64,000 bases of DNA, taken from assembly GCA_963740455.1 (NCBI GenBank), contig CAVUEF010000012.1, forward strand, positions 148,298 through 212,297, given 5' to 3'. Shown piece after piece: positions 14,242 through 46,279 of the stretch. The notes under the pieces were generated by a model, which did not search any database, was not told the origin of the DNA, and saw nothing but the letters and a program-made list of their open reading frames with translations. Each line of letters begins with the position of its first letter. Position 1 is the stretch's first letter. The position numbers and the translations under genes were made by a program. Source of the stretch: an uncultured beta proteobacterium. Its GTDB lineage: Bacteria > Pseudomonadota > Gammaproteobacteria > Burkholderiales > Burkholderiaceae_C.

Positions 14242-14271
14242 TACTAGGCGTGTAGCCTAGGTATTTGCCTA

Positions 14272-14313
14272 GCCCGTATTTGCCATTCTCATGGCAAATA
14301 CGGGCATTTTCTT
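14272..14313 (+). terminator. rho-independent terminator of the lipoprotein gene
   Basis: Perfect 14-bp stem GCCCGTATTTGCCA / TGGCAAATACGGGC with a 6-nt loop, followed by ATTTTCTT. Confidence 0.8.
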
Positions 14314-14506
14314 GTCGGTGGATTTGATATTTGCAAGCGGAGGCCACAAACAGGCAGTCACTCTGGACGATGCATATCCGCCGCCATGCAGCATCTGTGC
14401 GCTTGTCTGGACGCCGGTTCAGCGGCAGATAATCGCGTCCCGTCAGGCAGCGCCAATCCAGTCTGTGGCGGGCCAATGGTGAGTCTCGCTGCGGTTTGAA
14501 GGGGTT

Positions 14507-14671
14507 GAGCACGATCTGGATGTGATGGCGGAATGCGACTGGGTCGTCGACCTAGGGCCCGAGGGCGGCCATGGCGGCGGGCGCATCGTCGCCGCAGGCA
14601 CGCCCGAACAAGTGATGATGAGCGGCAGCCATACCGGCGTGGCGCTGGGGCCGGTGCTGGCGCGCGGGTGA
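14507..14671 (+). pseudogene. orphan 3'-terminal fragment of a uvrA-like gene (direct repeat copy 2)
   Basis: Encodes [54 protein letters not shown]-stop with no upstream gene body. There are 7 differences from copy 1: 5 nt in 4 synonymous codons and 2 non-synonymous. Confidence 0.85.
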
Positions 14672-14732
14672 GCGCGGCGCGACAAGAGCGGGCCACCTTT
14701 TCAAGTCCACACAACCAAGCTCGGAGGCTATC

Positions 14733-14817
14733 GTGGCAAATTCCAAACAAGTCGGCAGTCTCGTGGGCCCCGTTCTTGTCGCAATGCTCGTCTCAGAGTT
14801 CCCGCTTGTTCAGCCCC
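14733..14817 (+). pseudogene. 5' fragment of a small membrane-protein gene interrupted by the IS element
   Basis: GGAGG followed by GTG 14733. Reads MANSKQVGSLVGPVLVAMLVSEFPLVQP up to the IS end. Continues in-frame at 16734 once the IS and one TSD copy are removed. Confidence 0.7.
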
Positions 14818-28206: not shown

Positions 28207-28207
28207 G

Positions 28208-29233: not shown

Positions 29234-30257
29234 GCGACAACTCCTGAGCGAGCGACTCGCCCTGCCCCGCCGACGCAGACCAGGCGTCGGGCAGTTCGCG
29301 AAAGCGCCGCCCGCCGATCTGCTTGAAGCGTTTACGCGAGAACAGCATGGCACGCGGATGGTCTTGCAGCCCGCAGCCCGGGATGGCGCGCTCGAGCACG
29401 GCGCGCACGCTGTCGCGGTCGCGGCCATGCACCATGCAATAGAGGTTGTACGGCCAGCCAGGGGCGCGCTCGCGCCGGTAGGCCAGCGTGACGCCGGCTT
29501 CGCGTGCCAGCGCCATGCCGCAGGCATCGACGCGTGCGTCGGGCACATCGAATACCGTCATCGCATTCGCGGCAAAACCGAGCTCATGGTGGCGCACGAT
29601 GGCGCCAAAGCGGCGCAGCGTGCCGTGCTCGAGCCAGCGCTCGAGCGTGCGCATGACGGCGTCGGAGCTGCTGCCCAGTGCTTGCGCCCAGGCATCGAAA
29701 GGCCGCGCTATCAGCGGCAAGCCCTCTTCCACCAAGGCCGCCAGCGCCCATTCTTCGTCGGCCACCGGTGCCGGCGCGGCCGAGTGCGCAGCGCCTTGCC
29801 CGGCCGTGCTGTGGCGCAGGTCGAAACCGAGGTCGATGCGATAGGCGCGCTCCATGCGCAGCCGCAAGGCGGGCAGCCCGGTCGTCGCTTCGAGCTGCCG
29901 CATGGCTGCCTCGACGCACTGGGCATCGCGTCCGGTCATGACAAACCAGAGATTGAAATGATGTTCGCGTTCGTAGTTGTGGTTCACGCCAGGATGCAAG
30001 GACACCATGGCGGCCACCGCGTCCAGACGATCGACCGGCACCGCCATGGCCGACAGCAGCGCCGCGCCGCCCGTGCCCGCGCCGAATACGCCGCCGATGC
30101 GGCTCAAGGCGCCCTCGGCCAGCAGCTCGCGATAGGCTGCCATCACTTGCTGCGCAGGCATTGCCTGCACTGCAGCGATGTGCTCGAACGGTTCGCGCAG
30201 CAGCGGAAAGTCGCGCTGCCAGTTGTTGAGCAGTGCCAGGCGGGCAGCGTGGTGCAT
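29220..30257 (-). CDS. nirDL: fused NirD-NirL siroheme decarboxylase subunits (AsnC/Lrp-like)
   Basis: 345 aa starting MHHAARLALLNNWQRDFPL. Two tandem halves (..NHNYEREHHFNLWFVM.. and ..LAYRRERAPGWPYNLYCMVH..). 14-nt overlap with nirGH. Confidence 0.8.
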   Translation of the reverse strand: MHHAARLALLNNWQRDFPLLREPFEHIAAVQAMPAQQVMAAYRELLAEGALSRIGGVFGAGTGGAALLSAMAVPVDRLDAVAAMVSLHPGVNHNYEREHHFNLWFVMTGRDAQCVEAAMRQLEATTGLPALRLRMERAYRIDLGFDLRHSTAGQGAAHSAAPAPVADEEWALAALVEEGLPLIARPFDAWAQALGSSSDAVMRTLERWLEHGTLRRFGAIVRHHELGFAANAMTVFDVPDARVDACGMALAREAGVTLAYRRERAPGWPYNLYCMVHGRDRDSVRAVLERAIPGCGLQDHPRAMLFSRKRFKQIGGRRFRELPDAWSASAGQGESLAQELSHAAS

Positions 30258-30261
30258 GTGC

Positions 30262-31446
30262 CTAGAACCCGATGCGCGCGGCGCGCGAGGTAAGGAAGAT
30301 GCCGCTGGGCCCGGCCACCAGCAGCGTCGCCAGGGTCTGGAAGTTGCGCGTGTCGATCGCAACAATGTGGTCGGCGTCGCGTGCGCTGATCCATACCGCT
30401 TCGCCACGCGGCGTGAACTCCATGTGCAGCACCGCCTTGCCCGGCGACAGCGTGCGCACAACCTGGTGCGTCAAGGTGTCGATGACTTGCACGCGGTCGT
30501 AGTCGGGTACCGCGAAATTGACCCAGACTTGCCGCCCGTCGGGCTGCGCCATCACGAACACCGGCTGGCCGGCGACCTTAATGCGGGCCACTTCAAGCCA
30601 GGTCTGCGTGTCCACCACCAGCACTTCATGGTGACCGATGGCCGGCAGATAGACATAGCGCCCTGCCACCGACCAGCCACGCAGATGCGGCATCTTGAAC
30701 ACCGGCAAAGCCACCTCGCCCTTGCCATAACCGTCCAGGATGCGGCGCGCCTTGGGCACTGGCGCCCACAGGTCGACCAGCGCCAGGCCGTCCTCGCCGA
30801 ACAGTCCGGCGATGTAGTAGCGCCCATCGGGCGTGACCAGCGCGTCGTACGGCTGGCGGCCGATGTCGCTCAGTCGCGTGATCTTGGGCGCGCTCACATC
30901 CGACAGATCGGCGATCCAGATCGCGTTGCCATCGAACAGGCTGAATGCAAAACGCTGGCCCGGCAGATCGACCAGACCGACCACGCGCGACAACTTGCCC
31001 GGTGCGTACTCGGCGGGAATGTCTGCCACCAGTGCGAGTGTCTTGGCGTCAAACACCTTGACACCACCGGGCTGGTAATTCTGTGCAGCCACCAGCGTGC
31101 CGTCCGACGAGATCGCACCGCCGATAGAGTTGCCGGCCTGCATGATGCGTGCCTCGATGCGGCGCGTCAGCAAATTCACCTTGGTGAGACCTCCATCGCG
31201 GCCAAAGACATAGGCGACCGCGCCATCGCGCGAAAACACCACCGACGCGTGCGACAAGTCGCCCAGGCCGGTGACTTCGCCCAGCAGCGCGCGCGAACTG
31301 GTGTTGATCAGCGCCAGCGTGCCGCTGCCTCGTTCGATCACGACGCCCAGGTCGCCGGTGCCCACCGGCGACACCGTCATGCAGCCGGGCAGCAAGGCCG
31401 CGGTCGTCGATGCCGCCAGCAATGTCAGCAGTTCACGGCGCTTCAT
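30262..31446 (-). CDS. nirF: heme d1 biosynthesis protein NirF (cd1-propeller-like lipoprotein)
   Basis: Start MKRRELLTLL. Lipobox LLPGC. d1-type propeller without a heme c motif. ATGA overlap with the nirC stop. Confidence 0.85.
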   Translation of the reverse strand: MKRRELLTLLAASTTAALLPGCMTVSPVGTGDLGVVIERGSGTLALINTSSRALLGEVTGLGDLSHASVVFSRDGAVAYVFGRDGGLTKVNLLTRRIEARIMQAGNSIGGAISSDGTLVAAQNYQPGGVKVFDAKTLALVADIPAEYAPGKLSRVVGLVDLPGQRFAFSLFDGNAIWIADLSDVSAPKITRLSDIGRQPYDALVTPDGRYYIAGLFGEDGLALVDLWAPVPKARRILDGYGKGEVALPVFKMPHLRGWSVAGRYVYLPAIGHHEVLVVDTQTWLEVARIKVAGQPVFVMAQPDGRQVWVNFAVPDYDRVQVIDTLTHQVVRTLSPGKAVLHMEFTPRGEAVWISARDADHIVAIDTRNFQTLATLLVAGPSGIFLTSRAARIGF

Positions 31447-31784
31447 GGTCTTGCCCTCATCGGTTCTTCGGGAAAGCCCAGGGCGAGTTGCTGTGCAATC
31501 CACTGGGCGTCGGCCTGGCTGAGCAATGTGCGCCAGGGCGGCATCGGCGTGCCCGGCCGACCATGGTAAATCGTCGCAGCCAGCGACTCGACGGGTTTGT
31601 CTGCCAGCGCCTCGCGCGTCAGCGCGGGTCCGAGTCCCCCCGTCAGCCGCATGCCGTGGCAGGCGCCACAGTCCTGCCGCACCATGCGCGTCAACGTGCG
31701 TTGGCGCTCGACGGCGGGCGCACTGTCGGCGGCGTGCGCAACTGCGACGCCAAGCAAGAGCAGCGCCGCGAGCTTGCGCATCAT
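31443..31784 (-). CDS. nirC: cytochrome c55X NirC
   Basis: 113 aa starting MMRKLAALLLL. Signal peptide, CGACHG heme c motif, position between nirM and nirF. Confidence 0.8.
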   Translation of the reverse strand: MMRKLAALLLLGVAVAHAADSAPAVERQRTLTRMVRQDCGACHGMRLTGGLGPALTREALADKPVESLAATIYHGRPGTPMPPWRTLLSQADAQWIAQQLALGFPEEPMRARP

Positions 31785-31786
31785 GG

Positions 31787-32098
31787 TTAGGATTTGAGAA
31801 TCAGCTCGATCGCGGCTTTCAGATCGGCATCGCTGATCTTGTCGACCGGATTGGGCGCCATCGGAATCGGGCCGAACGTGCCCGAGCCGCCCGAGCGGAC
31901 CTTGGCCATCAGCTTGGCCATCACGTCCTGGCCCTTGTACTTGGCGGCAATGTCCTTGAACGCCGGGCCGACAATTTTCTTGTCCTTTGAATGGCAGGCC
32001 ATGCAGCCGGCCTTGGTCATGGCTTCTTCGGTGCTGGCCCAGGCGCCGGCGCTTGCCAGCGCCAGCGACGCGGCGATGATCAGAGAGGTCTTCTTCAT
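31787..32098 (-). CDS. nirM: cytochrome c551/c552 (class I c-type), NirM
   Basis: 103 aa. Signal peptide, CMACHS motif, distal Met region (GPIPMAPN). Confidence 0.85.
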   Translation of the reverse strand: MKKTSLIIAASLALASAGAWASTEEAMTKAGCMACHSKDKKIVGPAFKDIAAKYKGQDVMAKLMAKVRSGGSGTFGPIPMAPNPVDKISDADLKAAIELILKS

Positions 32099-32168
32099 GC
32101 GGAAATCCTTTGAAAATCCAGTCAGGGGAGCAGGGCGTGCCGAGTGTAGCGGCGAAGCACTTGCGTTC

Positions 32169-32213
32169 GCCCGACCGACTCGAGTCCGTGGCAGTCACGG
32201 CCTCAAGTCGGGC
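32169..32213 (-). terminator. intercistronic stem-loop between nirS and nirM (possible attenuator or mRNA-stabilising hairpin)
   Basis: Outer stem GCCCGAC/GTCGGGC enclosing CCGTG..CACGG and the GACTCGAGTC palindrome. No clear U-tract. Confidence 0.3.
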
Positions 32214-32228
32214 TGAGCTTCAGCAATC

Positions 32229-33992
<1,764 letters not shown>

Positions 33993-34036
33993 TCAATACT
34001 GGCTGCGATGGTCAGCCAGACACGGCATCGCCGTCC

Positions 34037-34050
34037 TTGAACCAGTTCAA
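34037..34050. promoter_or_regulatory. FNR/Dnr/NnrR-type binding site in the nirS-nirE divergent promoter region
   Basis: Perfect palindrome TTGAACCAGTTCAA (TTGA-N6-TCAA). Centred 84 nt upstream of the nirS ATG and 65 nt upstream of the nirE ATG. Confidence 0.75.
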
Positions 34051-34108
34051 GGACCCATGCACCTTAGGCCTGAACAATGCGCCAATGCCATCAGAAGGAC
34101 TCGAGCGA

Positions 34109-34933
34109 ATGAGTGTGATCAACGAACCGCTGCGCTTTGATGCGCCAACGCTCATGCCGCGCCCGGCCAAGGTGACGCTGGTGGGCGCCGGGCCGGGCGA
34201 TCCCGAGCTCTTGACGATCAAGGCCGCCAAGGCGCTGGAAGCGGCGACGCTGGTGCTGATCGACCATTTGGTGGGACCGGAGGTGCTGGAGCTCGTCCCT
34301 GCGTCGGCCCGGCGCATCTATGTCGGCAAGGAGTCCGGCCACCACAGCATGCCGCAGCAGGCCATCATCGAGCTGATGATAGATCTCGCCCGCAGCGGCA
34401 AGCCGGTGTTGCGGCTCAAAGGAGGTGACCCCTACATCTTTGGCCGCGGCGGTGAAGAGGCCCAGGCGCTGGCCGGCGCCGGCGTGCCGTTCGAAGTGAT
34501 CCCCGGCATCAGCGCGGCGCAGGGCGCTGCGGCGCTCGCCGGCATACCGCTGACGCACCGCGACCATGCCTGCTCGCTGGTGCTGACGACCGGGCATTTG
34601 CGCGGCGAAGGCGCCAAGCGCGGCGTCGATCTCGACTGGGGGCTGTTGGCCCGCCCCAACCAGACGGTGGTGGTCTATATGGGTGTGGCCACGCTGCCGG
34701 TGATCTGCCGCGAACTGGTCGCGCATGGCTTGCCCGCCGCCACACCGGCAGCGACCGTGGAGCGCGCCACGCGCGCCGACCAACGCACGGTGGTGGGCAC
34801 CCTGGCCACGCTGCCCGGGCTGGCTCTCGCGCATGACGTGAAGTCACCGGCGCTGATCATCATCGGCGGCGTGGTGTCGCTGCACGCGACGCTGGGATCA
34901 TCTGCTGTCGAGCAGCGACTGGCCGCGCCCTGA
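34109..34933 (+). CDS. nirE: uroporphyrinogen-III C-methyltransferase (NirE/CobA)
   Basis: GAGPGDPELLT motif and RLKGGDPYIFGRGGEE. Start ATG 34109 is preceded by GAAGGA (alternative ATG 34085). Divergent from nirS. Confidence 0.9.
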   Translation: MSVINEPLRFDAPTLMPRPAKVTLVGAGPGDPELLTIKAAKALEAATLVLIDHLVGPEVLELVPASARRIYVGKESGHHSMPQQAIIELMIDLARSGKPVLRLKGGDPYIFGRGGEEAQALAGAGVPFEVIPGISAAQGAAALAGIPLTHRDHACSLVLTTGHLRGEGAKRGVDLDWGLLARPNQTVVVYMGVATLPVICRELVAHGLPAATPAATVERATRADQRTVVGTLATLPGLALAHDVKSPALIIIGGVVSLHATLGSSAVEQRLAAP

Positions 34934-34942
34934 GGCGATGAC

Positions 34943-36850
34943 TCAGCCTTGAGGCGGCGCAGCCGACGGCAAGAACGCATCCGAAAAGCACATGTCGTCG
35001 CCGAGCCCGTGCGCGATGAAGGTCGGCACCGCCGCCTCGACCATCTTGACTGAGCCGCACACATAGACCTCGAACCCGCGCATGTCGGGAAAGTCGGCCA
35101 GCATGGCCTCGTGGACCAACCCGCGCCGTCCGGTCCATGCATCAAGCGGTTCGGCATCCGAGAGCACCGGCACGAAATGGAAGTTGGCATGCTCGCGCTG
35201 CCACTGTTCGGCAAGTTCGACCATGTACAGATCTTGCGGACGACGCGCGCCCCAGTAGAGCCACATCGGCCGCGTCAAGCCGCGCTGGAACGCGTCTTCG
35301 ACAATGCTCTTGACCGGCGCAAAGCCGGTCGCACCCGCCACGAACAGGATAGTCCGCTCGCTCTCGCGCAAGGTGAAGTTGCCCAGCGGCCCTTCGAAGT
35401 GAAGCGCGTCGCCCACCTTCATGTCGGTGAACACATGGCCGGTGAACCGACCGCCCGGAATGCGCCGCACATGCAGCTCGATGCGATCATTGTGATGCGG
35501 CGCATTGGCGAACGAGAATGCGCGTCGCCGGCCGTCGTCGGGAACGATGTTGATGTACTGGCCGGCGACAAAATCAATGCGCTCGGCGCCGGGCAGCACA
35601 ACGGTGAGCCGGGTCAGATCTTCGGTGAGGCGCTCAATTCTCTCGATGCGCCCGACATGGGCGCGCGGCGTCTCCCGCACCGCGTCCATCTCGCCCGCCA
35701 CCTCGATTTCGAGGTCCGACAAAGGCGTGGCGCAGCACATCAAGGCCTTGCCTTGGGCGCGCTGACTGTCTGGCAAGGCAGCACGCTGGTAGGCGCCATG
35801 GTCGACGCTGCCGTGCGACACCGTGCACAGACACACGCCGCAGCCGCCGTTGCGGCACTCATAGGGCAGGTTCAGGCCTTCGCGCAAGCCGGCCTCGAGC
35901 AAGGTCTCGCCGGCGCGGATGGCGACGGGGTCTTGCCGGCCTTGCACCGTCATGCGGAACTCCCCTGCCTTGGCGCGCCTGAATTTCGGCGGAAGCCAGG
36001 GCAGCGCCGCGATCAGCAAGGTCGCTGCGCCGAGCAGCGCCCATACGTTTGCCAGCGGCCACACATAGAGCAGCGGAAACACCGTCAGGTAGAACCAGTC
36101 GAGTTGCAGCAGCGCCGGCGCGATGTCGAGCTGCGCCGCGCCGCCCTGGCTCAGCGCGGGCTTGATCAGCGACAGTGCCAGCAGCGTCAACGCCACGCTG
36201 ATCAGAATCGGTCGCGGCGGGAGCGTCTTGGCTTTGGGAACGCGCTGCACATGGATCCACATCAGCAGCAGCACGAGCAGCGGAATGCCGATATGCATGA
36301 ACGACAGCAGCGAGAAGAAGCGGTCGTTGACGCTGGTCGTGTAGATGAAGTTGCGCACCAAGCTGCCACCAAAACCGGGCAGCCAGTCGAGCCACTCGAA
36401 GCTGGCCACAATGACGAACTGCGCCAGCTGATCCCAGGGCAGCATATAGCCGTTGATGCCCGATATATAGACGCCCCAGATCAGCGCCACGCCGCTGACC
36501 CACGAGAACCAGCGAAAGCCGCGCATGCGGTTGAAGGCAAAGTGGCGCAGCATGTGCAGCAGCATCGTCAGCACCATCGCGTCCGAGGCATAGCGATGCA
36601 GGCTGCGCAAAATGCCGCCCGCGAACCACTGGCCGTGCGTCAAGGCCTCGACCGAGCCGTACGCGCCGGCCACACCGGTCTCGAAAAACGCATACAGGTA
36701 CAGCCCGCTGCCGGCCACCAGCCAGAACAGCGCAAAGCTGATCTCGCCCAGGTGGTACAGGGGATTGAGCCGGTCGCCAAAGGCGCGGTTGAAGAGCGCC
36801 TCGACACGCATGAAACACCACTGCAACAGCGACTGAAGGCGCGTCATCAT
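34943..36850 (-). CDS. fusion protein: diheme cytochrome b (bc1-type N-terminal domain) + [2Fe-2S] ferredoxin + FAD/NAD(P)H ferredoxin-reductase module
   Basis: 635 aa. Two bis-His pairs spaced 14 residues apart (RSLHRYASDAMVLTMLLHMLR; FMHIGIPLLVLLLMWIHVQR). Plant-type cluster motif CRNGGCGVC..CC. FNR motifs RAFSFAN, GPLGNF, AGATGFAP, YVCGS. ATGA overlap with the upstream gene. Confidence 0.8.
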   Translation of the reverse strand: MMTRLQSLLQWCFMRVEALFNRAFGDRLNPLYHLGEISFALFWLVAGSGLYLYAFFETGVAGAYGSVEALTHGQWFAGGILRSLHRYASDAMVLTMLLHMLRHFAFNRMRGFRWFSWVSGVALIWGVYISGINGYMLPWDQLAQFVIVASFEWLDWLPGFGGSLVRNFIYTTSVNDRFFSLLSFMHIGIPLLVLLLMWIHVQRVPKAKTLPPRPILISVALTLLALSLIKPALSQGGAAQLDIAPALLQLDWFYLTVFPLLYVWPLANVWALLGAATLLIAALPWLPPKFRRAKAGEFRMTVQGRQDPVAIRAGETLLEAGLREGLNLPYECRNGGCGVCLCTVSHGSVDHGAYQRAALPDSQRAQGKALMCCATPLSDLEIEVAGEMDAVRETPRAHVGRIERIERLTEDLTRLTVVLPGAERIDFVAGQYINIVPDDGRRRAFSFANAPHHNDRIELHVRRIPGGRFTGHVFTDMKVGDALHFEGPLGNFTLRESERTILFVAGATGFAPVKSIVEDAFQRGLTRPMWLYWGARRPQDLYMVELAEQWQREHANFHFVPVLSDAEPLDAWTGRRGLVHEAMLADFPDMRGFEVYVCGSVKMVEAAVPTFIAHGLGDDMCFSDAFLPSAAPPQG

Positions 36851-38250
36851 GGCAAGTTCCGGGTCGCAGCCGGGCGCCGCATCGCGCGAATCATGACGAC
36901 CACAAACAGCAGCCCGCCAACAATGGCCACCAGGCCGCCCAGGCCCATCAACCCCATGCCGGCGATCTCACCGAAGCCGCGCAGCACCTGCTCGGCGCCG
37001 GCCACCTTGCGCTGCACGCCATAGCCCCCCGACCAGACCAGGCCGGTGATATGCATCAGCTGGCCCACGCCGTAGACGCCGGGCTGCAAGGCCGCGAGGC
37101 GGCCGCTCGGCGCGGCGTAACCCAATTGCGGCAGCAAGTGATAAGCCAGGCCCATCAGCGCCAGCGTGACCCCGACGATGCAGCCGTGGTAATGCGCCGG
37201 AATGCGCACGTCGGCACCATTGATGAAGACGCCGATCAGCCCGCCCGACGCGAACAGCACGATGGACCAGATGAGTGCTGCGCGCAAGGCGCGGGTCGTC
37301 GTCTCGCTGCGCGGCATGGACGGCAGTGCCAGCACCACCGCCAAGGCAATCGGCACGATCGCCACGCCGCCGCCCAGGCGCATCGCCCAGGTCAGCAGAT
37401 TGCGGTGCTCGACCGACGCGATCGGGTAGGCGAGATAGGCGTAAGGCGTGACGAATACGCCCACCAGCGCCAGCACGAACATCAGCAAGGCGATGCGGGG
37501 GCTCAGCAGCAGCTTGGCGCCACACGCGCTGGCCAGCCACAGCCAGGCCACCAGCATCAGCAAGGTCCAGGTGAACTGGAGCGCATGCCCGCCGCCCCAG
37601 AACAGGACTTCGTAGTACATCTTGCCGACCAGCATCGGCGGCGTTGTCGCGAACGACCAGGCAAAGGCCAGCAAAGCCACCGCTGCCGAGACGGCGGCGG
37701 CATTCAGCCCGAAGTGCAGCACACCATCGCCGCCGAAGCCCAGGCCGAGCTTGGGCGCAGTGAACAAGCTGCGCAGCACGAGCACACCGGCGCCGAGCGC
37801 AAAAATCAGCAGGCCGGCCATGAACAGCGGGCGCTCAAGCACCGGGATGTAATTGGCCATGATGGGGTCGCCGTGCCCGATGAACGCCGCCAGCGCCATC
37901 AGGCTGGCACCCGTCCCGCTCAAGCCCAGAGCCGCCCAGCCCCAGGCCAGGCCGCGCGTCGATCCGTTCAGACTCCAGAGCAGCCCCGCCAGCGCCACAA
38001 ACCACACCAGCACCGACAGATCGACATGCACGACCAGCGCGACGCGAAAGAAATCCGCGCCGGGCAGGATCTGGTTGATGAGCGGCGTGCGCGACGCCAC
38101 CAGCAGCACCGAGAACAAGCCCGCGCCGATCAGCGCAATCAGTCCGAGCCACAACCAGGCGCGCGCCAGTTGACGCTGCGTGTCGCGCGGTACCGCCAGC
38201 GTGTACGGGTGGCCGTCGGCCAGTGAAGGGTCGAATGGAGTGGATGTCAT
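36847..38250 (-). CDS. highly divergent heme-copper-oxidase subunit-I-like 12-TM protein (stand-alone; NnrS-like alternative not excluded)
   Basis: 467 aa. Histidines at HCO-like spacing: H75 (VVHVD), H222 (FWGGGHALQF, compare cbb3 WWYGHNAVGF), E281-H282 where HCOs have HH, H353/H355 (AHYHG). ATGA overlaps at both ends. Confidence 0.5.
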   Translation of the reverse strand: MTSTPFDPSLADGHPYTLAVPRDTQRQLARAWLWLGLIALIGAGLFSVLLVASRTPLINQILPGADFFRVALVVHVDLSVLVWFVALAGLLWSLNGSTRGLAWGWAALGLSGTGASLMALAAFIGHGDPIMANYIPVLERPLFMAGLLIFALGAGVLVLRSLFTAPKLGLGFGGDGVLHFGLNAAAVSAAVALLAFAWSFATTPPMLVGKMYYEVLFWGGGHALQFTWTLLMLVAWLWLASACGAKLLLSPRIALLMFVLALVGVFVTPYAYLAYPIASVEHRNLLTWAMRLGGGVAIVPIALAVVLALPSMPRSETTTRALRAALIWSIVLFASGGLIGVFINGADVRIPAHYHGCIVGVTLALMGLAYHLLPQLGYAAPSGRLAALQPGVYGVGQLMHITGLVWSGGYGVQRKVAGAEQVLRGFGEIAGMGLMGLGGLVAIVGGLLFVVVMIRAMRRPAATRNLP

Positions 38251-38765
38251 CGCAGTGTGATCCCGCCCTTGGCCGGATCGAAGTCGATCACCAGAATTTG
38301 CGCCGGTTTCAATGTCACGCTGGCTTCGCGCACAAAGTCGAAGCCTGGCGTGCGCACATCGTTCTTCAGCCGGATCGCCAGCTGATGGGTGCCGGCGCTG
38401 ACCTGCAGGCGCTGGTAGAAGGCCGATGCACCGTCGCGCGACAGGCCCGAAGGCATCGCTACATGGTGCAGCACGCGCTTGCCATCGAGGTCGAGCTCCA
38501 CCGTGATCGGCGAGCGCTCGCGCGGACACACCACCGGCGCGCGCATATTGGGCGGCAGCTTGGCCAGCTCTTGCGGCGTCGCCTTGTGGCACGCCGACAC
38601 CGGCAAGCCCTGGTGGTTGAAGCTGAACTTGATCAAGGCCTGGTCGGGCGCCAGGTGGCGGTACGGCGGCCAGTTGGAGAACGCGCCAATGAACAGCGCG
38701 AACAATCCGTACAGCAGCGCCTGCGCGATCCAGGCCTTCGGGGTGAATGGGGTCTTGTCAGTCAT
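38247..38765 (-). CDS. membrane-anchored periplasmic protein of unknown function (single N-terminal TM helix plus a beta-rich domain of about 130 aa)
   Basis: 172 aa starting MTDKTPFTPKAWIAQALLYGLFALFIGAF. No CXXCH and no CuA motif. 8-nt overlap upstream and ATGA overlap downstream. Confidence 0.6.
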   Translation of the reverse strand: MTDKTPFTPKAWIAQALLYGLFALFIGAFSNWPPYRHLAPDQALIKFSFNHQGLPVSACHKATPQELAKLPPNMRAPVVCPRERSPITVELDLDGKRVLHHVAMPSGLSRDGASAFYQRLQVSAGTHQLAIRLKNDVRTPGFDFVREASVTLKPAQILVIDFDPAKGGITLR

Positions 38766-40296
38766 GGGATGGGGTAAGGCATTGTGCCCGCAAGGCAAGC
38801 CGCTGGCGCAAGCGCAGCAAGGCCGCTTGCAAGGTGGACTCTGCGCCCGCATCGGCCCAGGCCAGTTCGAGTTGATCAAGTGGCACCGAGTCGCGCAGGT
38901 GGGGCTCACGCAGCCCTTTCAGCCGCTCGGCGGTCCAGCGTTGGCCGAGCCGGAATTCGCAGCCGCCTTGCGAGCAGCCGCTGACCAGCACGCCGTCGGC
39001 ACCGTCGCGCAACGCGTACTCGATGAACGAGGGCGGCAGCTGGCCGGCGCACATCAGGCTGAAGACAACAACATCGGGGGCTTCGAGCGCGCTGACCTTG
39101 GCACCGCAATCGCAGCCAAACACGACGATCTTGTGCGGCGCATCGGCCAGTCCTTGCGAGAGGCGCCGGCGCAGTGCGCCGATGGGGGCGGACGGCATGT
39201 CGATGCCGGTGACAAGTTCCGCCGCGCCGCGAAACGGTGTGGACGAGGGGCAGGCGCCAACGCAGATGCCGCAGCTCGCGCACAGGTCGGCGTCGACCTG
39301 TGCCATCTGGCGGATGCTGCGCACGGGATGCGCCACCATCGTCACCGCGGCATACGGGCAGTCGTCGAAGCAGCGACGGCAGCCGTTGCAATTGGCCGCG
39401 TCGACCACGGCAATCGGCGCCACCGCAGCTTGCGGCAGATAGGGCAGCGCGAACAGCAGCAAGAGCGCCGCCGACAGCAGCGTCCAGACGAAACCGGGCG
39501 AGGTCGCGTAGACGAGCGGATGCACAAACAGGAGCAGCCAATCAAAGCTCAGCGCGCCGGGCACGCTCGCCAGATCGGCTGGTGCCTGACTCATCACCGG
39601 CGCGACCAGCGCCAATCCGAGCAGGGTCAAACCGGTACCGATGGCCAGCGGGCGCGGCGGAAACACCGCCGCGCGGCTGATGCGCTGAATATGGAACCAC
39701 AGCGCGAACACCGACAGCAGCGGCACGCCCAGGTGCACGAACACCAGCAGCGAGAAGAGGCGGTCGCTCAGCGACGCCGCGTTGAGAAAGTTGCGCGTCA
39801 ACGGCGCGGCAAAGAGCGGCAGCCGGTCCAGCCACTCGGCCGTGGCGAGCGCCGAGAACTGGCCGAGCTGGTCCCAGTTCAACCAGAAGCCGCCAATCGC
39901 GCTGATGAAAACCAGCAGCAGCAAGGGCACGCCGGTGAGCCACGAGAAGCGGCGAAAACCGCGGTAGCGGCCGAACAGCGCCTCGCGCAGCAGATGGCCG
40001 AGCATCAGCACGACAAAGGCATCGGCCGCATAGCGGTGCAGGCTGCGCAGCACGCCGCCCAAATACCACTGTTGACGTGAGAGCTGGTCAATTGATCGAT
40101 ACGCGTCGGCCACCGAGGTATCGAGCGCCGCATACAGGTAGATGCCGCTCAAACCCAGCAACCAGAACATCATGAAGGCCAGCGTGCCCAGGTGCCGCAG
40201 GGGATTGAGGCCGGAGCCGAACGCGCCATCGAAACCGTGCTCGCAGCGCCGGTAGCCGGCCAGCGCCAGCAGGCGGATCGATCGCAGCGGGTGCAT
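38758..40296 (-). CDS. fusion protein: diheme cytochrome b (paralog of the 34943-36850 N-domain) + 2x[4Fe-4S] ferredoxin + MvhD/FlpD-like domain
   Basis: 512 aa. Bis-His pairs RSLHRYAADAFVVLMLGHLLR and FVHLGVPLLSVFALWFHIQR. Cluster motifs CNGCRRCFDDCP and CASCGICVGACP. MvhD-like segment VVFGCDCGAKV..MCAGQLPPSFIEYALRDGADGVLVSGCSQGGCEF. Confidence 0.75.
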   Translation of the reverse strand: MHPLRSIRLLALAGYRRCEHGFDGAFGSGLNPLRHLGTLAFMMFWLLGLSGIYLYAALDTSVADAYRSIDQLSRQQWYLGGVLRSLHRYAADAFVVLMLGHLLREALFGRYRGFRRFSWLTGVPLLLLVFISAIGGFWLNWDQLGQFSALATAEWLDRLPLFAAPLTRNFLNAASLSDRLFSLLVFVHLGVPLLSVFALWFHIQRISRAAVFPPRPLAIGTGLTLLGLALVAPVMSQAPADLASVPGALSFDWLLLFVHPLVYATSPGFVWTLLSAALLLLFALPYLPQAAVAPIAVVDAANCNGCRRCFDDCPYAAVTMVAHPVRSIRQMAQVDADLCASCGICVGACPSSTPFRGAAELVTGIDMPSAPIGALRRRLSQGLADAPHKIVVFGCDCGAKVSALEAPDVVVFSLMCAGQLPPSFIEYALRDGADGVLVSGCSQGGCEFRLGQRWTAERLKGLREPHLRDSVPLDQLELAWADAGAESTLQAALLRLRQRLALRAQCLTPSHD

Positions 40297-40302
40297 CAGG
40301 AC

Positions 40303-41130
40303 TCAGCTCGGCCGCGCTGCGCGCCGCAGGCGCCGCTGGTTGCGCCATTCGAGCAGAAAGAACCAGACCATGGCCAGCGCGAAGGTCACGCCGCCAGCGA
40401 TCTCGATGACCAATCCGTAATTCGTTCGGTAGGTGCCGGTCACCGGGTCGTACACGGTGCACAGAATGCGCACGCGGTCAATCAGCTCGGACAGCGGCAG
40501 GCCGGCCGGCATCGGCTGGTCGCGCAGCAGCAGCCGCATCGGCTCGCCGAGCTTGTCGCGCGACAGGTTTTCGCCATACACCTGGGCATAGACGCGACCG
40601 CGCGGGTCGAGCACCGACACCGCCAGCAAGTGATCGAAACCGGCCGGCGTGGCCACATAGCTGAAGCCGAAGTCGCGCGTCAAGGCGTCGACCGAGGCCT
40701 GCGGCGGGCTCAGAAACTGCCAGTTCGGCGCCTTGATGCGCATTTGCGCCGCAAACGAGCGCATCGCCGCCGGCGAATCGGACGGCTGGTTGAAACCGAT
40801 GCTGACGACGCTGAACTTGTCGGCACCGAACACCTGGCTCAATTGGTCGACGGCCTCGGCCAGCGACTTGGTGGTGGTCGGACAGACCTGGAAGCAACCC
40901 GTGTAGATGAAGCTCACCAACAGCGGCTTGCCGCGATAGTCGGCGAGCCGCACCAAGCGACCTTGCGTGTCGAGCAGTTGATGCGCGCCCACGTCGCGGC
41001 CGATGGCGGCCTGGCTGTCGCGCAGGGCGCTCGCCGCGTCAAGCGCGGGCGTGGCGCTACCGGCCGGTTGCGCAGCGAGCGGCGCGACCAGCACGGCCCA
41101 CAGCAGTGCCAGCGCAGCGCGGGAGTTCAT
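40303..41130 (-). CDS. senC: SCO1/SenC copper chaperone with a C-terminal membrane extension
   Basis: Start MNSRAALALL (ATGA overlap with the ctaB stop). CFQVCP (CxxxC) motif and conserved His (FDHLLAVS). C-terminal TM helix. Confidence 0.85.
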   Translation of the reverse strand: MNSRAALALLWAVLVAPLAAQPAGSATPALDAASALRDSQAAIGRDVGAHQLLDTQGRLVRLADYRGKPLLVSFIYTGCFQVCPTTTKSLAEAVDQLSQVFGADKFSVVSIGFNQPSDSPAAMRSFAAQMRIKAPNWQFLSPPQASVDALTRDFGFSYVATPAGFDHLLAVSVLDPRGRVYAQVYGENLSRDKLGEPMRLLLRDQPMPAGLPLSELIDRVRILCTVYDPVTGTYRTNYGLVIEIAGGVTFALAMVWFFLLEWRNQRRLRRAARPS

Positions 41131-42026
41131 CGCAACAGACCGTCGAGCGTCGCTGCCGCAAGCACCATGCTCAGCTGCACCAGCGACGCGAAGAACGCGC
41201 CCATCGCCGTCTTGCGATTGGTGTCGCGCAACAGCTGCCAGGTCTTGTGCACGAAGTGCGCGCCGCCCGTGGCAGCGCCCATCAAGTAGATCGGGCCGGC
41301 GCCAAAAAACGCTGGCAACAACGACGCGCCAACCAGTGCCAGGGTGCTGTAAAAAACAATCTGCGCCGCACGCTGCGGCCCCACCACGACGGGCAGCATG
41401 GGCACACCTGCGGCCGCATAGTCGGCCTGATTGGCGATGGCCAGGCTCCAGAAATGCGGTGGCGTCCAGAGGAACAGCACGCATGCCAGCAGCAGCGGCA
41501 GCGCGCTGATCTGGGGGTTGACCGCGGCCGCGCCGGCCAGCACGGCAAAACTACCGGCCAGGCCGCCGATCACGATATTCAGCGAGCTGCGCCGCTTCAG
41601 CCACAAGGTGTAGACCACGCCATAGAAGAACGCACCCAGAAACGTGTACAGCGCGGCCATACCGTTCAACACCAGCCAGGCGGCGGCCACCGCACCTGCC
41701 AGTAGCAGGGCGATCAGCACCAGCCAGGCCGGCGAATGCGGCAACGCGCCGGTCACGAAAGCCCGACCGCGCGTGCGCGCCATCAGGCGATCGGTGTCGG
41801 CCTCGGCGTACTGGTTGAACGCGCCGGCCGCGGCCGACGACACCAGTACCGACAGGGCCAGCACCACCACTTGCCAGACAGCGGGCGCAGGGCCCGGCGT
41901 GACCGCCAGCCCGACCAGCGCGGTGATCATGATCATCACGCCGATGCGCAGTTTGAACAGGCCGAGCACCTCGCGGACGAGGCCGACGGCAGATCGTTGC
42001 GCGGGATGTGCCGCGGTCGTGCTCAT
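41127..42026 (-). CDS. ctaB: protoheme IX farnesyltransferase (heme O synthase)
   Basis: 299-aa UbiA-family polytopic protein (..NQYAEADTDRLMARTRGR.., ..WTPPHFWSLA..). Confidence 0.9.
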   Translation of the reverse strand: MSTTAAHPAQRSAVGLVREVLGLFKLRIGVMIMITALVGLAVTPGPAPAVWQVVVLALSVLVSSAAAGAFNQYAEADTDRLMARTRGRAFVTGALPHSPAWLVLIALLLAGAVAAAWLVLNGMAALYTFLGAFFYGVVYTLWLKRRSSLNIVIGGLAGSFAVLAGAAAVNPQISALPLLLACVLFLWTPPHFWSLAIANQADYAAAGVPMLPVVVGPQRAAQIVFYSTLALVGASLLPAFFGAGPIYLMGAATGGAHFVHKTWQLLRDTNRKTAMGAFFASLVQLSMVLAAATLDGLLR

Positions 42027-42030
42027 GACA

Positions 42031-43731: not shown

Positions 43732-43744
43732 GGTGCCCTCCGCC

Positions 43745-44284
43745 TTACTTGACATAGATGCGGCCCACCATCGTGTGATGGCCGATGCCGCAGTATTCGT
43801 TGCAGACTACCGAGAAGGTACCGGCCTGGTTGGGCGTGACGGTGACCACATGCTCGTAGCCCGGCACGATCTGGATATTGATATTGGCCGGCTGCAGCGA
43901 GAAGCCGTGGTTGTAGTCCATCGACGTCAGGTGCAAGCGATAGGTCTTGTCCTTCTCGAACTCGACGATGGGCCAGAATTTCCAGAGGCTTGCGACGATG
44001 TAGACATCACTGCCGGGCGGCGGCGCAACAACCGGAATCTTGTCGGCGGTCTCGGTGCGCACCGTGTACTTGTCGACCACCGCCTGGGCCTTGGCGGTGA
44101 ACATCGCCGAGGTGGTCTTGTAGGTCTCGGTGGAGAGATTCTGTTTGCCGTAGACATGCCAGCCGACCATCATGGCGAACATGATCAGACACCAGATCAG
44201 GGCAATCACGATCCAGGTGCCTTCGACACGGTCCAGCGGGTGTTTCCACCAAAGTCGTTCTGCGGGGGGCAGGATAGCGCTCAT
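43745..44284 (-). CDS. heme-copper oxidase subunit II with an intact CuA site
   Basis: 179 aa. One TM helix and a cupredoxin domain with DYNHGF and CNEYCGIGHHTM (H..CxExCGxxHxxM). Confidence 0.85.
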   Translation of the reverse strand: MSAILPPAERLWWKHPLDRVEGTWIVIALIWCLIMFAMMVGWHVYGKQNLSTETYKTTSAMFTAKAQAVVDKYTVRTETADKIPVVAPPPGSDVYIVASLWKFWPIVEFEKDKTYRLHLTSMDYNHGFSLQPANINIQIVPGYEHVVTVTPNQAGTFSVVCNEYCGIGHHTMVGRIYVK

Positions 44285-44308
44285 ATTGCTCGTCCTCGTG
44301 ATGGTTGT

Positions 44309-44464
44309 TTACTTGGCCAAAGGCACGGTGAGGATGTCGATGACGCCCCACAACGTGTAAACAACCATCGGCACCATCACGCCCAGAAAGAGCAGCAGAA
44401 ACGGGTTGTCGAGCAATTGCTGCATCATCGGAATCTTCTCGTCGGGGTTATTCGTGTCGCTCAT
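44309..44464 (-). CDS. small single-TM oxidase-associated subunit
   Basis: 51 aa (MSDTNNPDEKIPMMQQLLDNPFLLLFLGVMVPMVVYTLWGVIDILTVPLAK). AGGAGA lies before the ATG. 24 nt upstream of subunit II. First gene of the operon. Confidence 0.6.
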   Translation of the reverse strand: MSDTNNPDEKIPMMQQLLDNPFLLLFLGVMVPMVVYTLWGVIDILTVPLAK

Positions 44465-44536: not shown

Positions 44537-44618
44537 GATAAGAATGCGCGATGTTGACATCAATGTTCCACGCTGTGCTCGCTCATATCTACGGGTTAGA
44601 CCTATCAGGGAATTCCGC

Positions 44619-45581
44619 ATGAACATGACCCAGCGTCGACAAACCTGGCTGCGACGTGCGGCCCTGTTGTGTGCGGCACTGGTGCTGGCCATCACCAGTC
44701 TGAGCGCCTTCATTCGGCTCTCGCAAGCGGGCTTGGGTTGCAGCGAATGGCCGCAGTGTTATGGCAGCCGCTTGCGTGACGCACAGCATGGCCGCGTGGC
44801 CAGCGTCACGGACAGCGCTGCGGTCGTCGCCGCGCGGCTCACGCATCGCGTGGTGGCGGTGACCGCCTTGCTGCTCGTGATTGCGATGGTGGTGCTGTGC
44901 TTCGGCAATCGGCCCTTCCTGCTGCGTGAGGGCATGCTGGCGTTGGCCTTGCTCGCCTTGGCGCTGGGATTGGCGGTACTCGGCCGCTGGACCGCAGGGA
45001 CGCGCGTGCCGGCGGTGGCGATCGGCAACTTGCTGGGCGGTCTGCTGATGCTGGCGCTGAGCTGGCGGTTGGCAGCCCGCGCGGCGCCGCGGCTCGACTC
45101 GCGATTGCGCTTCTGGGCAAGGATGGGGGCGGCAGTGTTGCTCATCCAGGTGACTGCGGGGGCACTGCTCAGCGCATCGTATGCGGGTCTGAGCTGTGCC
45201 GGAGCGCTGGATTGCCTGCGCACGGCGCAAGCCGCGCAGTGGCCTTGGCACGCCTTGAACCCGTGGCGCGAACCGGTGTTCGACGCCATGCAAAGCGCGC
45301 CGAACCCCGCGGGCGCACTCGTCCAACTGGTGCACCGCGGCGGCGCGCTGCTGACCTTGCTGGTGTTGGCCCCGCTGGGCGTGGCGGTGCTGCGTGGCGC
45401 GCACCAACGCGAGGGCGCGGCACTGCTGGCGCTGCTGGTCATCCAGATCGGCGTGGGCGTGCTCATGCCGATCGCGTCCCTGCCGCTGGGCTTGGCGCTG
45501 GCTCACAACATCGTTGCCGCATTGTTGCTGGCGACACTGGTCCGCCTAGAATGCGCTTCCATGAGTCAGGAGAAGCCCTAG
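44619..45581 (+). CDS. ctaA: heme A synthase (COX15/CtaA family)
   Basis: Start MNMTQRRQTW. GLGCSEWPQCYG motif, conserved His in TM helices (LTHRV, LVHRG, LAHNI), 8 TM helices. Confidence 0.85.
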   Translation: MNMTQRRQTWLRRAALLCAALVLAITSLSAFIRLSQAGLGCSEWPQCYGSRLRDAQHGRVASVTDSAAVVAARLTHRVVAVTALLLVIAMVVLCFGNRPFLLREGMLALALLALALGLAVLGRWTAGTRVPAVAIGNLLGGLLMLALSWRLAARAAPRLDSRLRFWARMGAAVLLIQVTAGALLSASYAGLSCAGALDCLRTAQAAQWPWHALNPWREPVFDAMQSAPNPAGALVQLVHRGGALLTLLVLAPLGVAVLRGAHQREGAALLALLVIQIGVGVLMPIASLPLGLALAHNIVAALLLATLVRLECASMSQEKP

Positions 45582-45596
45582 TGGAAATGCGCCAAT

Positions 45597-46279
45597 TCGA
45601 CGTGCCGCGCTACCTGTCGGTGCTGCCGCTGTTCAACGACATGAGCCCGACCGAGTTGGAAGGCCTGGCCAGCGGCTGCACGCTGCGCCGGTTGGCGCGC
45701 GGCGACGCGGTATTTCGCGTGGGCGAACCCTGCGAAGCATTCCACGTCACCGTGATGGGCCAGGTCAAGCTGTTCGCGATTTCGCCCGCGGGTCAGGAAA
45801 AAGTCATCGAGCTGGTCGGCCCCGGCCAGAGCTTTGCCGAGGCGCTGATGTTCACCGACAAGCCCTACATCATCAATGCGCAGGCGCTCACCGACACGTT
45901 GCTGCTGACTGTGCAAAAGAGCGCCGTGCTGGCCGAAATCGACCGGGACAGGCGCTTCGCGCTGCGCATGCTGGCGGGCATTTCGCGCCGTCTGCACGCG
46001 CTGGTGGGCGACGTCGAAGCCTATGCGCTGCACAGCGGTTTGCAGCGCGTGATCGGCTACCTGCTGCGCGACCAGGCGCCCGAAGATGAAAGCTCGAATG
46101 GCGAGGTCACCGTGTCGCTGCCGGTGAGCAAGGCCACCATCGCGTCGCGCTTGTCGCTGACGCCCGAATACTTTTCGCGCGTGCTGCACGAGCTGGAAGC
46201 CAAAGGCTTTATCGAGGTCGACAAGCGCGACATACGGATTCGCGACCCGCAGGCGCTGGCACGCTACCAGGCGTCCTGA
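45597..46279 (+). CDS. Crp/Fnr-family transcriptional regulator, Dnr/NnrR type
   Basis: cNMP-binding-like fold and a C-terminal HTH with the E--SR recognition motif (TPEYFSRVL). No N-terminal FNR Cys cluster. Sits beside the nir and oxidase genes. GTG 45591 is an alternative start. Confidence 0.85.

Follow-up and report, generated by a model that had tools for sequence, protein, structure and literature searches.

Genomic organization of the locus

The stretch of DNA considered here (64,000 nucleotides of contig CAVUEF010000012.1 from an uncultured betaproteobacterium, hereafter the window) contains, between positions 34943 and 36850, a gene encoding a protein of 635 amino acids (aa) in which a membrane-bound cytochrome b domain is followed by a plant-type [2Fe-2S] ferredoxin domain, a FAD-binding domain and a NAD(P)H-binding domain. 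This cytochrome b fusion, designated below as the Fer2/FNR fusion, is the last gene of an operon of nine tightly packed genes located on the minus strand (34943-44464). The same operon encodes a putative nitric oxide (NO) reductase of the eNOR type, proteins for heme and copper supply, a second cytochrome b fusion, a small protein predicted to be largely periplasmic and a divergent oxidase-like protein (Table 1). As developed below, we tentatively propose that the Fer2/FNR fusion would carry electrons from NAD(P)H across the membrane to this NO reductase module.

Domain architecture of the Fer2/FNR fusion

Every Pfam domain detected in the fusion exceeds its gathering cut-off. Cytochrome_B covers residues 27-202 (62 bits for a cut-off of 27.2), together with Cytochrom_B_N_2, and is followed by Fer2 (301-376), FAD_binding_6 (402-492) and NAD_binding_1 (503-607). 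A preliminary description of this locus, made from the sequence, had proposed a three-part fusion of this kind with two intact bis-His heme sites, a Cx4Cx2C..C cluster motif and a complete FAD/NAD(P)H module, and the hidden Markov models and residue positions bear out each of these elements: the His pairs are H85/H99 and H186/H200, with a spacing of 14 residues within each pair, the cluster motif reads C332-x4-C337-x2-C340...C372, and RAFS (443-446), GPLGNF (487-492), AGATGFAP (505-512) and CG (598-599) are all present.

Judged from its sequence, the membrane domain can be assigned to the cytochrome b/b6 superfamily (PF00033), whose hallmark is a bundle of four helices, B and D contributing the two His pairs that ligate two b hemes. 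Residues H85 and H99 (helix B) and H200 (the second His of helix D) align on the His residues of Chlamydomonas cytochrome b6, and the alignment gap found at the first helix-D His is consistent with a one-residue difference in spacing. The N-terminal domain reaches 98 bits with the ExtP profile and 72 bits with that of cytochrome b6, which was also matched in the PDB. In contrast to what is found in NOX enzymes and MsrQ, the families typical of NADPH oxidases and ferric reductases (PF01794, FAD_binding_8, NAD_binding_6) are absent among its Pfam matches (E <= 0.01), and the idea that the hemes are held by a different scaffold therefore stands. Residues 197-295 match neither the Cytochrom_B_C models nor any PDB chain, and no similarity to subunit IV was detected after helix D. 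With no Rieske or cytochrome c1/f gene in the operon and no cytochrome b C-domain or subunit IV, the system does not qualify as a bc1 or b6f complex.

The soluble module shows the features of class IB ferredoxin-NAD(P)H reductases (BenC/AntC/MmoC/GcoB type), in which a FAD domain (RxYS) and a NAD(P)H domain (GxxGxxP, CG) come after a plant-type [2Fe-2S] domain, and its domain order and motifs allow it to be placed in this class. Its relatives in the PDB are GcoB (1.1e-53), BenC (2.5e-42), the reductases of carbazole and toluene oxygenases, NqrF and Fre, the nearest of which bear names of reductase or electron-transfer components. GcoB, BenC, NqrF and similar proteins, which share the Fer2-FAD-NAD order, oxidize NADH and release the electrons through their [2Fe-2S] cluster. 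The protein scores far below the NCBIfam equivalog cut-offs of BenC (211.5 vs 430), MmoC (187.5 vs 500), AntC (182.1 vs 402) and NqrF (118.8 vs 295). Members of the family are named at NCBI 'cytochrome b N-terminal domain-containing protein', '2Fe-2S iron-sulfur cluster-binding protein' or 'FAD-binding oxidoreductase'.

Membrane topology

The AlphaFold2 (AF2) model of the fusion contains six transmembrane (TM) helices, corresponding to helices A-D plus two more. When Lys and Arg residues were counted with respect to these helices, 16 were located on predicted cytoplasmic segments and 2 on periplasmic ones. Six TM helices and this charge distribution place the N-terminus and the Fer2-FAD-NAD module on the cytoplasmic side, and the reductase module, which the preliminary description had assumed to be cytoplasmic, is thus predicted to be so and not periplasmic, as the use of NAD(P)H demands. 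In this topology, H85 and H186 are predicted to form the heme site of the P side and H99 and H200 that of the N side, as in bc complexes. The [2Fe-2S] domain begins ~12 residues past the last helix, directly below the N-side heme. Two further elements of the membrane domain are an LPWDQ motif in helix C and an invariant Asp-Trp pair, D251-W252, ahead of the last TM helix.

Conservation and distribution

Among 81 orthologs, one each from separate genomes, all four heme His and the four cluster Cys are invariant (81/81), and when the residues of the flavin and NAD motifs are included, conservation amounts to 79-81 of the 81 sequences. The same His, Cys and flavin/NAD motifs are invariant in 35 database proteins, and each of the 120 best database clusters examined (70-100% identity) shows the complete domain set. 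A scan of one genome per species returned 589 stretches encoding relatives of the fusion. The possibility that the open reading frame results from an assembly fusion of two genes can thus be rejected, as the architecture recurs in hundreds of genomes, at least 589 at the species level. The best 80 of these 589 stretches belong nearly all to Burkholderiales-type metagenome-assembled genomes (MAGs), with the isolate Simplicispira lacusdiani in addition. Clustering of the full-length fusion at 50% left essentially one representative (P0121, 58% identity), which indicates a compact family. No full-length fusion was found in a plasmid collection, where only a Defluviimonas plasmid with an operon of the FeS type described below was retrieved.

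An eNOR-type oxidase upstream in the operon

The heme-copper subunit I encoded by the third gene of the operon is the true oxidase of the operon and was not mentioned in the preliminary description. Its sequence reads WWAFGH239SSQQ243 in the region of the active site, with a Gln at the position of the cross-linked Tyr, while the AHH and GHFH motifs are kept. The corresponding genes of three distant loci (L087, L088 and L090) share the motif GHSSQQIN. A Gln at the position of the cross-linked Tyr has been reported as the marker of eNORs, while sNOR and the Bacillus CuA-NOR carry an Asn (PMC8756737, Table A4). The Gln signature, the presence of all six His that bind the metals and the CuA motif preserved in subunit II therefore assign this protein, at the sequence level, to the eNORs, a class related to the B family; sNOR was considered as an alternative identity and rejected on account of the Gln. 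The Bacillus cbaD gene that follows senC (taken as the 'orf1' of ammonia-oxidizing bacteria, AOB) was also set aside, as according to its description it encodes a six-TM protein of ~190 aa and seems to be no cytochrome b.

The eNOR from Rhodothermus marinus has been purified and shown to reduce NO and to contain an A-type heme, and CtaA is frequent in eNOR operons (PMC11214002). By analogy with the R. marinus enzyme, and with CyoE encoded in the operon and CtaA adjacent to it, the enzyme of the window probably possesses NO reductase activity and a heme A-type cofactor.

Surroundings of the operon

Start and stop codons overlap as ATGA at three gene borders of the operon: between CyoE and SenC (41127-41130), between the small protein and the oxidase-like protein (38247-38250) and between the latter and the Fer2/FNR fusion (36847-36850), where the overlap had already been noticed. 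The end of the fusion gene is separated by a 9-nt gap from a convergent nirE/cobA gene. Downstream lies a complete cluster for cytochrome cd1 nitrite reductase, nirSCFDLGHJN (25412-34933), comprising nirS, a c-type cytochrome gene, nirF, nirDL, nirGH, nirJ and nirN, with nirE/cobA on the opposite strand. The first gene of the operon, encoding a 51-aa membrane protein, has its place taken by genes of 50-60 aa in L087, L088 and L090.

Boxes of the TTG-N8-CAA type stand before the operon and before nirS. Such boxes occur 19 times over the window for 13.5 expected, which is not above chance, and without window-wide enrichment these two boxes are merely suggestive through their position. The strict FNR box TTGAT-N4-ATCAA has no match near the operon. 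Between positions 34000 and 45000, a simple scan returned no promoter-like site, and terminator-like sites were no commoner than in shuffled sequences.

Table 1. Features of the Fer2/FNR fusion, its operon and the adjacent region (positions in the window)
Feature	Coordinates	Strand	Basis
Cytochrome b : [2Fe-2S] ferredoxin : FAD : NAD(P)H fusion, 635 aa, closes the operon	34943..36850	-	Open reading frame, Pfam
Membrane domain of the fusion, residues 1-290	35981..36850	-	His positions, b6 alignment, AF2 helices, Lys+Arg count, 81/81 conservation
Plant-type [2Fe-2S] ferredoxin domain, residues 298-390 (C332, C337, C340, C372)	35681..35959	-	Pfam Fer2 6.3e-15
FAD-binding domain, residues 400-495 (R443-A-F-S446, G487-P-L-G-N-F492)	35366..35653	-	Pfam FAD_binding_6
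NAD(P)H-binding domain, residues 500-612 (A505-GATGFAP512, C598-G599)	35015..35353	-	Pfam NAD_binding_1 2.9e-22; PDB relatives
Oxidase-like protein, 467 aa, 12 TM	36847..38250	-	Weak Pfam COX1, hhalign, AF2, Foldseek
Small conserved protein, ~172 aa	38247..38765	-	No Pfam match
Paralogous cytochrome b fusion, 512 aa	38758..40296	-	Pfam, paralog identity
SCO1/SenC copper chaperone	40303..41130	-	Pfam, hydropathy, start codon
Heme O synthase (CyoE/CtaB)	41127..42026	-	TIGR01473 255.7 bits, above cut-off
Putative eNOR-type heme-copper subunit I, 574 aa	42031..43755	-	Pfam COX1 5.7e-66, motifs
Subunit II, intact CuA motif (H...CNEYCGIGHHTM)	43745..44284	-	Pfam COX2, sequence
51-aa membrane protein, operon gene 1	44309..44464	-	Sequence
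FNR/Dnr-like box TTGACTTGAACCAA	44523..44536	.	TTG-N8-CAA; ~60 nt upstream of gene 1
Heme A synthase (CtaA), divergent from the operon	44544..45581	+	Pfam COX15-CtaA
Crp/Fnr-family regulator, Dnr/Nnr-like, without N-terminal Cys cluster	45587..46279	+	Pfam, start codon, N-terminal sequence
TTG-N8-CAA box TTGAACCAGTTCAA before nirS	34037-34050		Pattern match

The oxidase-like neighbor

The gene directly upstream of the Fer2/FNR fusion encodes a protein whose relation to heme-copper oxidases is distant. Its Pfam COX1 match is marginal (42.6 bits) and searches of the PDB by sequence and by profile retrieved no relative; its NCBI label is 'cbb3-type cytochrome c oxidase subunit I'. Comparison by hhalign with the eNOR subunit I of the same operon gave a probability of 99.4% over the full length, and the AF2 model (predicted template modeling score, pTM, 0.84) has as best Foldseek match the subunit I of ba3 oxidase (TM-score 0.68-0.72). 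The protein retains the His of TM2, the His of TM6 (in WGGGH, followed by LQF, and so with no Tyr) and an HYH motif in TM10. The His-His pair of TM7 is gone, with an invariant Tyr in its place (Tyr/Ala in the hhalign alignment), and in four lineages the whole protein is devoid of HH dipeptides. TM8 begins with a Glu/Gln-His pair that is only semi-conserved.

The replacement of the TM7 His-His pair implies that the protein has no normal CuB or FeB site, while two hemes are possible. With two of the three CuB His missing, it is not, from its sequence, an ordinary heme-copper oxidoreductase. The preliminary description had seen in the codon overlap an argument for a 1:1 partner of the fusion. This view holds within the Burkholderiales-type subgroup, where the oxidase-like gene lies directly upstream of the fusion in all 69 related loci with sufficient flanking sequence, and does not extend to other lineages, in which the association is not constant.

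A conserved gene set with apparently interchangeable cytoplasmic modules

The second cytochrome b fusion of the operon possesses the same six-TM diheme domain, 51% identical to that of the Fer2/FNR fusion and with conserved His pairs, followed by two [4Fe-4S] clusters and a domain similar to MvhD/FlpD. Across eight fusions from six lineages, the four His and the Asp-Trp pair before the last helix are invariant. The combination of 2x[4Fe-4S] and FlpD domains on this cytochrome b domain is present in many lineages.

This FeS/MvhD-type fusion is far more widespread than the Fer2/FNR type and recurs in the eNOR-type loci examined from Alpha- and Betaproteobacteria.

The small protein encoded next to it is composed of one TM helix and a periplasmic domain with two invariant Cys; it has no Pfam match and could be assigned to no known family. 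Homologs (40-46% identical) occur in L081, L082, L087, L088 and L090, and wherever the protein was seen, its gene stands after a cytochrome b fusion, either directly or past one hemerythrin gene. A degenerate cupredoxin subunit II was considered as its identity and rejected, as hhalign shows no similarity to COX2. SenC, which in the window carries an extra C-terminal TM helix in addition to its N-terminal anchor, is encoded directly upstream of a cytochrome b fusion in the window and in L081, L082, L083, L087, L088 and L090.

Loci bearing the Fer2/FNR fusion contain the small protein in 59 of 60 cases, the FeS-type cytochrome b in 58 of 60, and SenC together with CyoE in 53 of 53. Other loci show how the set varies. 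In two MAGs (L087 and L088), an eNOR, SenC, a cytochrome b of the FeS/FlpD type and the small protein are accompanied by a hemerythrin and the oxidase-like gene, and there is no Fer2/FNR fusion; CyoE stands between eNOR and SenC in L087 and not in L088. The Defluviimonas plasmid (L090) has the order eNOR, CyoE, SenC, cytochrome b (FeS/FlpD), small protein and hemerythrin, without the oxidase-like gene and without the Fer2/FNR fusion. Conversely, in L081 a Fer2/FNR-type protein (57% identical) occupies the slot of the FeS type between SenC and the small-protein homolog, with no oxidase-like gene in between, and in L040 and L075 the Fer2/FNR type is the sole cytochrome b. What stays constant is thus an eNOR, SenC, the small protein and one cytochrome b fusion, whereas the oxidase-like gene falls outside this set. 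The Fer2/FNR and FeS/MvhD modules appear to be alternative inputs attached to the same membrane domain. NnrS, hemerythrin, NosR and nirS genes occur among the related loci and point to NO metabolism.

A third kind of module was found in the metagenomic contig L082 (1695-3506 and 8001-10484), in which the last cytochrome b is fused to a CysJ-like flavodoxin-FAD-NAD module (P0158). No second protein of this kind was found. Over at least 807 bp, the DNA for its cytochrome b matches that of the neighboring FeS-type paralog with 100% identity, and the reductase part is a relative of CysJ, whose kin sit beside CysI in sulfite reductase operons. The identical stretch stops precisely where the two domains meet and keeps the reading frame, in favor of a recent and real fusion, although it may also be an assembly chimera.

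A proposed role in electron input to eNOR

Any proposal for the Fer2/FNR fusion has to start from its domain make-up, ligand conservation, predicted topology, operon membership and gene-order conservation, as observed above. We propose that NAD(P)H would reduce the FAD of the fusion, which would pass electrons to the [2Fe-2S] cluster located directly beneath the membrane, from there to the N-side heme b (H99/H200) and then to the P-side heme b (H85/H186). The latter would most likely deliver them to a heme of the oxidase-type subunits and ultimately to NO (or O2). The fusion would thus be an accessory electron-input subunit of an eNOR-type NO reductase module, which would also include the sister FeS/MvhD cytochrome b, the small periplasmic subunit, SenC and, in this lineage, the oxidase paralog lacking CuB His. 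Such a pathway would remove NO while bypassing the quinone and cytochrome c chain. The preliminary description had proposed a NOX-like wire from NAD(P)H to heme b; architecture and topology make this path structurally plausible, although it is still an unproven reading. For the whole chain, from NAD(P)H oxidation to service of an eNOR-type module, we would put our confidence slightly short of even.

We infer the direction of flow, the physical complex, the acceptor and the substrate from several lines of argument. An outward direction is suggested by the kinship of the soluble module with NADH-oxidizing donors and by thermodynamics: according to established redox values, electron transfer from b hemes to NAD(P)+, inward and against the membrane potential, is strongly uphill, while the outward direction is downhill. 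An oxidase-type heme is favored as acceptor by operon logic and by translational coupling. The link to NO metabolism relies on the Gln signature of the eNOR, on CuA and CtaA, on the neighboring nirS cluster and on the Dnr-like regulator and the associated boxes.

Several points weigh against this proposal. The eNOR has an intact CuA site, i.e. an entry for electrons from the periplasm, and has no obvious need for a cytoplasmic donor. In Alphaproteobacteria and other lineages, this operon occurs without the Fer2/FNR fusion, which is thus not essential to the core function. Its oxidase-like partner lacks two CuB His and may not be catalytic. The exchange of reductase modules seen in L082 is a single example and possibly an assembly chimera. 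In its membrane part, the fusion has a poor AF2 model (mean predicted local distance difference test score, pLDDT, of 65.8), from which heme-to-cluster distances are not measurable. A literature search found no experiment on any member of the family. Finally, the invariant Asp-Trp pair, D251-W252, resembles the PEWY element of the quinol-oxidation site, which leaves room for a quinone as partner.

This last point leads to another explanation, in which the fusion would be a stand-alone NAD(P)H:quinone oxidoreductase whose b hemes reduce ubiquinone within the cytochrome b domain, thereby feeding the quinone pool of denitrification. The N-terminal domain is closest to quinol-handling cytochromes b, as indicated by its ExtP and b6 scores and its PDB match, and LPWDQ and D251-W252 resemble the LPWGQ and PEWY elements of bc complexes. 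NqrF, a subunit of a NADH:quinone reductase, carries the same Fer2-FAD-NAD module on a membrane anchor, and a quinone route would be reminiscent of the path proposed from ferredoxin/FNR to b6f in cyclic electron flow. However, past helix D no resemblance to subunit IV or to a cytochrome b C-domain could be detected, quinone reduction on the P side by electrons from the cytoplasm would come at the expense of the membrane potential, and a general dehydrogenase would not be expected as the translationally coupled last gene of an eNOR/SenC operon in 69 of 69 loci. We therefore consider this explanation unlikely, albeit serious.

The fusion might instead be a maturation or maintenance device, exporting NAD(P)H reducing power to the periplasm in order to keep SenC, copper and the CuA or heme centers of eNOR reduced. 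It would act during eNOR assembly or after NO damage, by analogy with NosR for N2O (nitrous oxide) reductase or with ferric and cupric reductases. In every lineage examined, a SenC gene immediately precedes a cytochrome b fusion, which is in line with such a role, and the extra C-terminal TM helix of SenC in the window could dock a membrane partner. Assembly genes are also abundant, with CyoE and SenC in the window and a PCuAC-like protein and CtaG encoded in L082, and hemerythrin genes, whose family includes proteins for the repair of NO damage, accompany the module. Nevertheless, b hemes are one-electron carriers whose usual potentials fit the reduction of Cu(II) and not that of disulfides, two distinct input modules in the cytoplasm would be superfluous for an assembly factor, and translational coupling to an oxidase-like structural gene suggests a stoichiometric subunit. 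A device of this kind is, in our view, rather improbable.

Very improbable is the reverse reaction, in which the fusion would work as a quinol:NAD(P)+ reductase re-oxidizing the quinol produced by succinate dehydrogenase and forming NAD(P)H under anoxia; a bifurcation similar to the Q cycle, with the second electron going to the oxidase, might provide the driving force. FNR-type modules are reversible in principle, and the operon also encodes NO reduction, a branch of high potential. However, transfer from ubiquinol (~+90 mV) to NAD(P)+ (-320 mV), inward and against the membrane potential, is strongly uphill with no energy-coupling element evident in the protein, and the solved structures nearest to the soluble module are all those of NADH-oxidizing donors. 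A role as quinol:NAD(P)+ reductase has been ascribed to an unusual cytochrome b/b6 of Accumulibacter (PMC4930944, PMC2289847, PMC9041414), a protein which may belong to the present family.

Going beyond the proposed input of electrons to eNOR, the second half of the operon might encode an unrecognized membrane complex, a NADH:NO oxidoreductase of new design. Such a complex would combine two bc-type cytochrome b wires, one with a NAD(P)H input and the other with a ferredoxin/MvhD-like input, with the small periplasmic subunit and an oxidase-fold protein whose active site would be remodeled and poor in copper His. It would couple cytoplasmic NAD(P)H to the reduction of NO (or O2) while bypassing quinones and cytochrome c. 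We regard this possibility as speculative and unlikely.

Comparison with known systems

The architecture of the Fer2/FNR fusion is reminiscent of NOX, FRE and STEAP proteins, in which a single polypeptide also links a FAD/NAD(P)H dehydrogenase on the cytoplasmic side to a pair of stacked bis-His b hemes spanning the bilayer. In contrast to NOX, its hemes would be held by a four-helix cytochrome b/b6 bundle (PF00033) and not by a six-TM ferric reductase domain, a [2Fe-2S] cluster is intercalated between flavin and heme, and the FNR module is of the BenC/NqrF class. Similarly, the diheme membrane protein MsrQ (YedZ) of E. coli receives its electrons from Fre, a NAD(P)H:flavin reductase which is located in the cytoplasm and belongs to the same FNR subfamily; Fre (1qfj) superimposes on the FAD/NAD part of the model with a TM-score of 0.91. 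However, Fre and MsrQ are separate proteins, MsrQ belongs to the ferric reductase domain family, no iron-sulfur cluster is involved and the client is a periplasmic molybdoenzyme.

NqrF and the class IB oxygenase reductases (BenC, GcoB, MmoC) share the Fer2-FAD-NAD order and its motifs, and NqrF is, in addition, tethered to the membrane and passes electrons to intramembrane centers; unlike the fusion, these proteins contain no hemes, and NqrF has a single anchor helix. The cytochrome b of b6f and bc1 complexes shares the bundle of helices A-D and the heme ligands, with the above-mentioned difference of one residue in helix D, whereas the fusion has two helices after helix D, no Rieske, c1 or f partner in the operon and a covalently attached donor module. 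For chloroplasts, the delivery of electrons by ferredoxin/FNR to the N-side heme of such a cytochrome of the b6 type is an idea of long standing.

At the level of the operon, the quinol oxidase SoxABCD from Sulfolobus also places a cytochrome b (SoxC) beside a heme-copper subunit (SoxB) with no Rieske/c1 chain, and the FeS/MvhD-type paralog gives a weak SoxC match; SoxC differs in its quinol donor and in having no cytoplasmic redox domains. The paralog also recalls NosR and NapGH, membrane proteins with cytoplasmic [4Fe-4S] clusters found beside a periplasm-facing N-oxide reductase, which they keep supplied or active. NosR differs from the cytochrome b fusions by its unrelated fold, its periplasmic FMN domain and its lack of b hemes.

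Garcia Martin et al. reportedly noted in 2006 an Accumulibacter protein with a cytochrome b/b6 N-domain and TM helices followed by ferredoxin, flavin and NAD(P) domains. The fusion architecture itself is thus probably not new to the literature. Papers on enhanced biological phosphorus removal (EBPR) describe an Accumulibacter 'novel cytochrome', 'unusual cytochrome b/b6' or 'quinol reductase' which has been proposed to re-oxidize quinol and is said to allow succinate dehydrogenase to run forward under anoxia (PMC4930944, PMC2289847, PMC9041414). The wire is thus reversed (from quinol to NAD(P)+) with respect to the reading favored here, and these papers draw no link to an eNOR operon. No locus named after Accumulibacter was found among the best 80 of the 589 stretches. 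According to another Accumulibacter study, sco1, a cytochrome and a ferredoxin-NADP reductase are among the genes drawn near denitrification genes, and a 'ba3' oxidase is expressed anaerobically in clade IIA (PMC6446978). This gene list and the anaerobic 'ba3' oxidase would fit the present operon. To our knowledge, two aspects are new: the place of the Fer2/FNR fusion in an eNOR operon, as an accessory input module open to exchange, and the adjoining oxidase paralog without copper His.

Implications

If the proposed pathway is correct, the fusion would represent a second and independent solution to the task of NADPH oxidases, built on the cytochrome b fold of bc1 and b6f complexes, and the eNOR class would be tied to a cytoplasmic reductant. 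As eNORs reportedly occur frequently in the environment and matter for N2O emission, this would bear on how NO detoxification, energy yield and N2O production are modeled in Betaproteobacteria from wastewater and soil. A covalent ferredoxin-FNR-cytochrome b6 fusion would also offer a natural model for the debated FNR/ferredoxin-to-b6f step of cyclic electron flow. Should the Accumulibacter protein be confirmed as a member of this family, the genomic context would cast doubt on its assignment as a quinol:NAD(P)+ reductase for the anaerobic tricarboxylic acid cycle. The family of oxidase-fold proteins without copper His deserves study in its own right.

Other features of the window

Two other regions of the window attracted attention. 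An open reading frame of 1907 aa on the plus strand (6284-12007) contains duplicated UvrA-type domains (interaction domain, DNA-binding domain and several ABC ATPase sites) and looks like a double-length UvrA paralog. It is followed by a segment (12001-16573) with a G+C content of 0.55, compared with ~0.65, which lies beside a DDE transposase gene on the minus strand (14882-16573) and is possibly an insertion.

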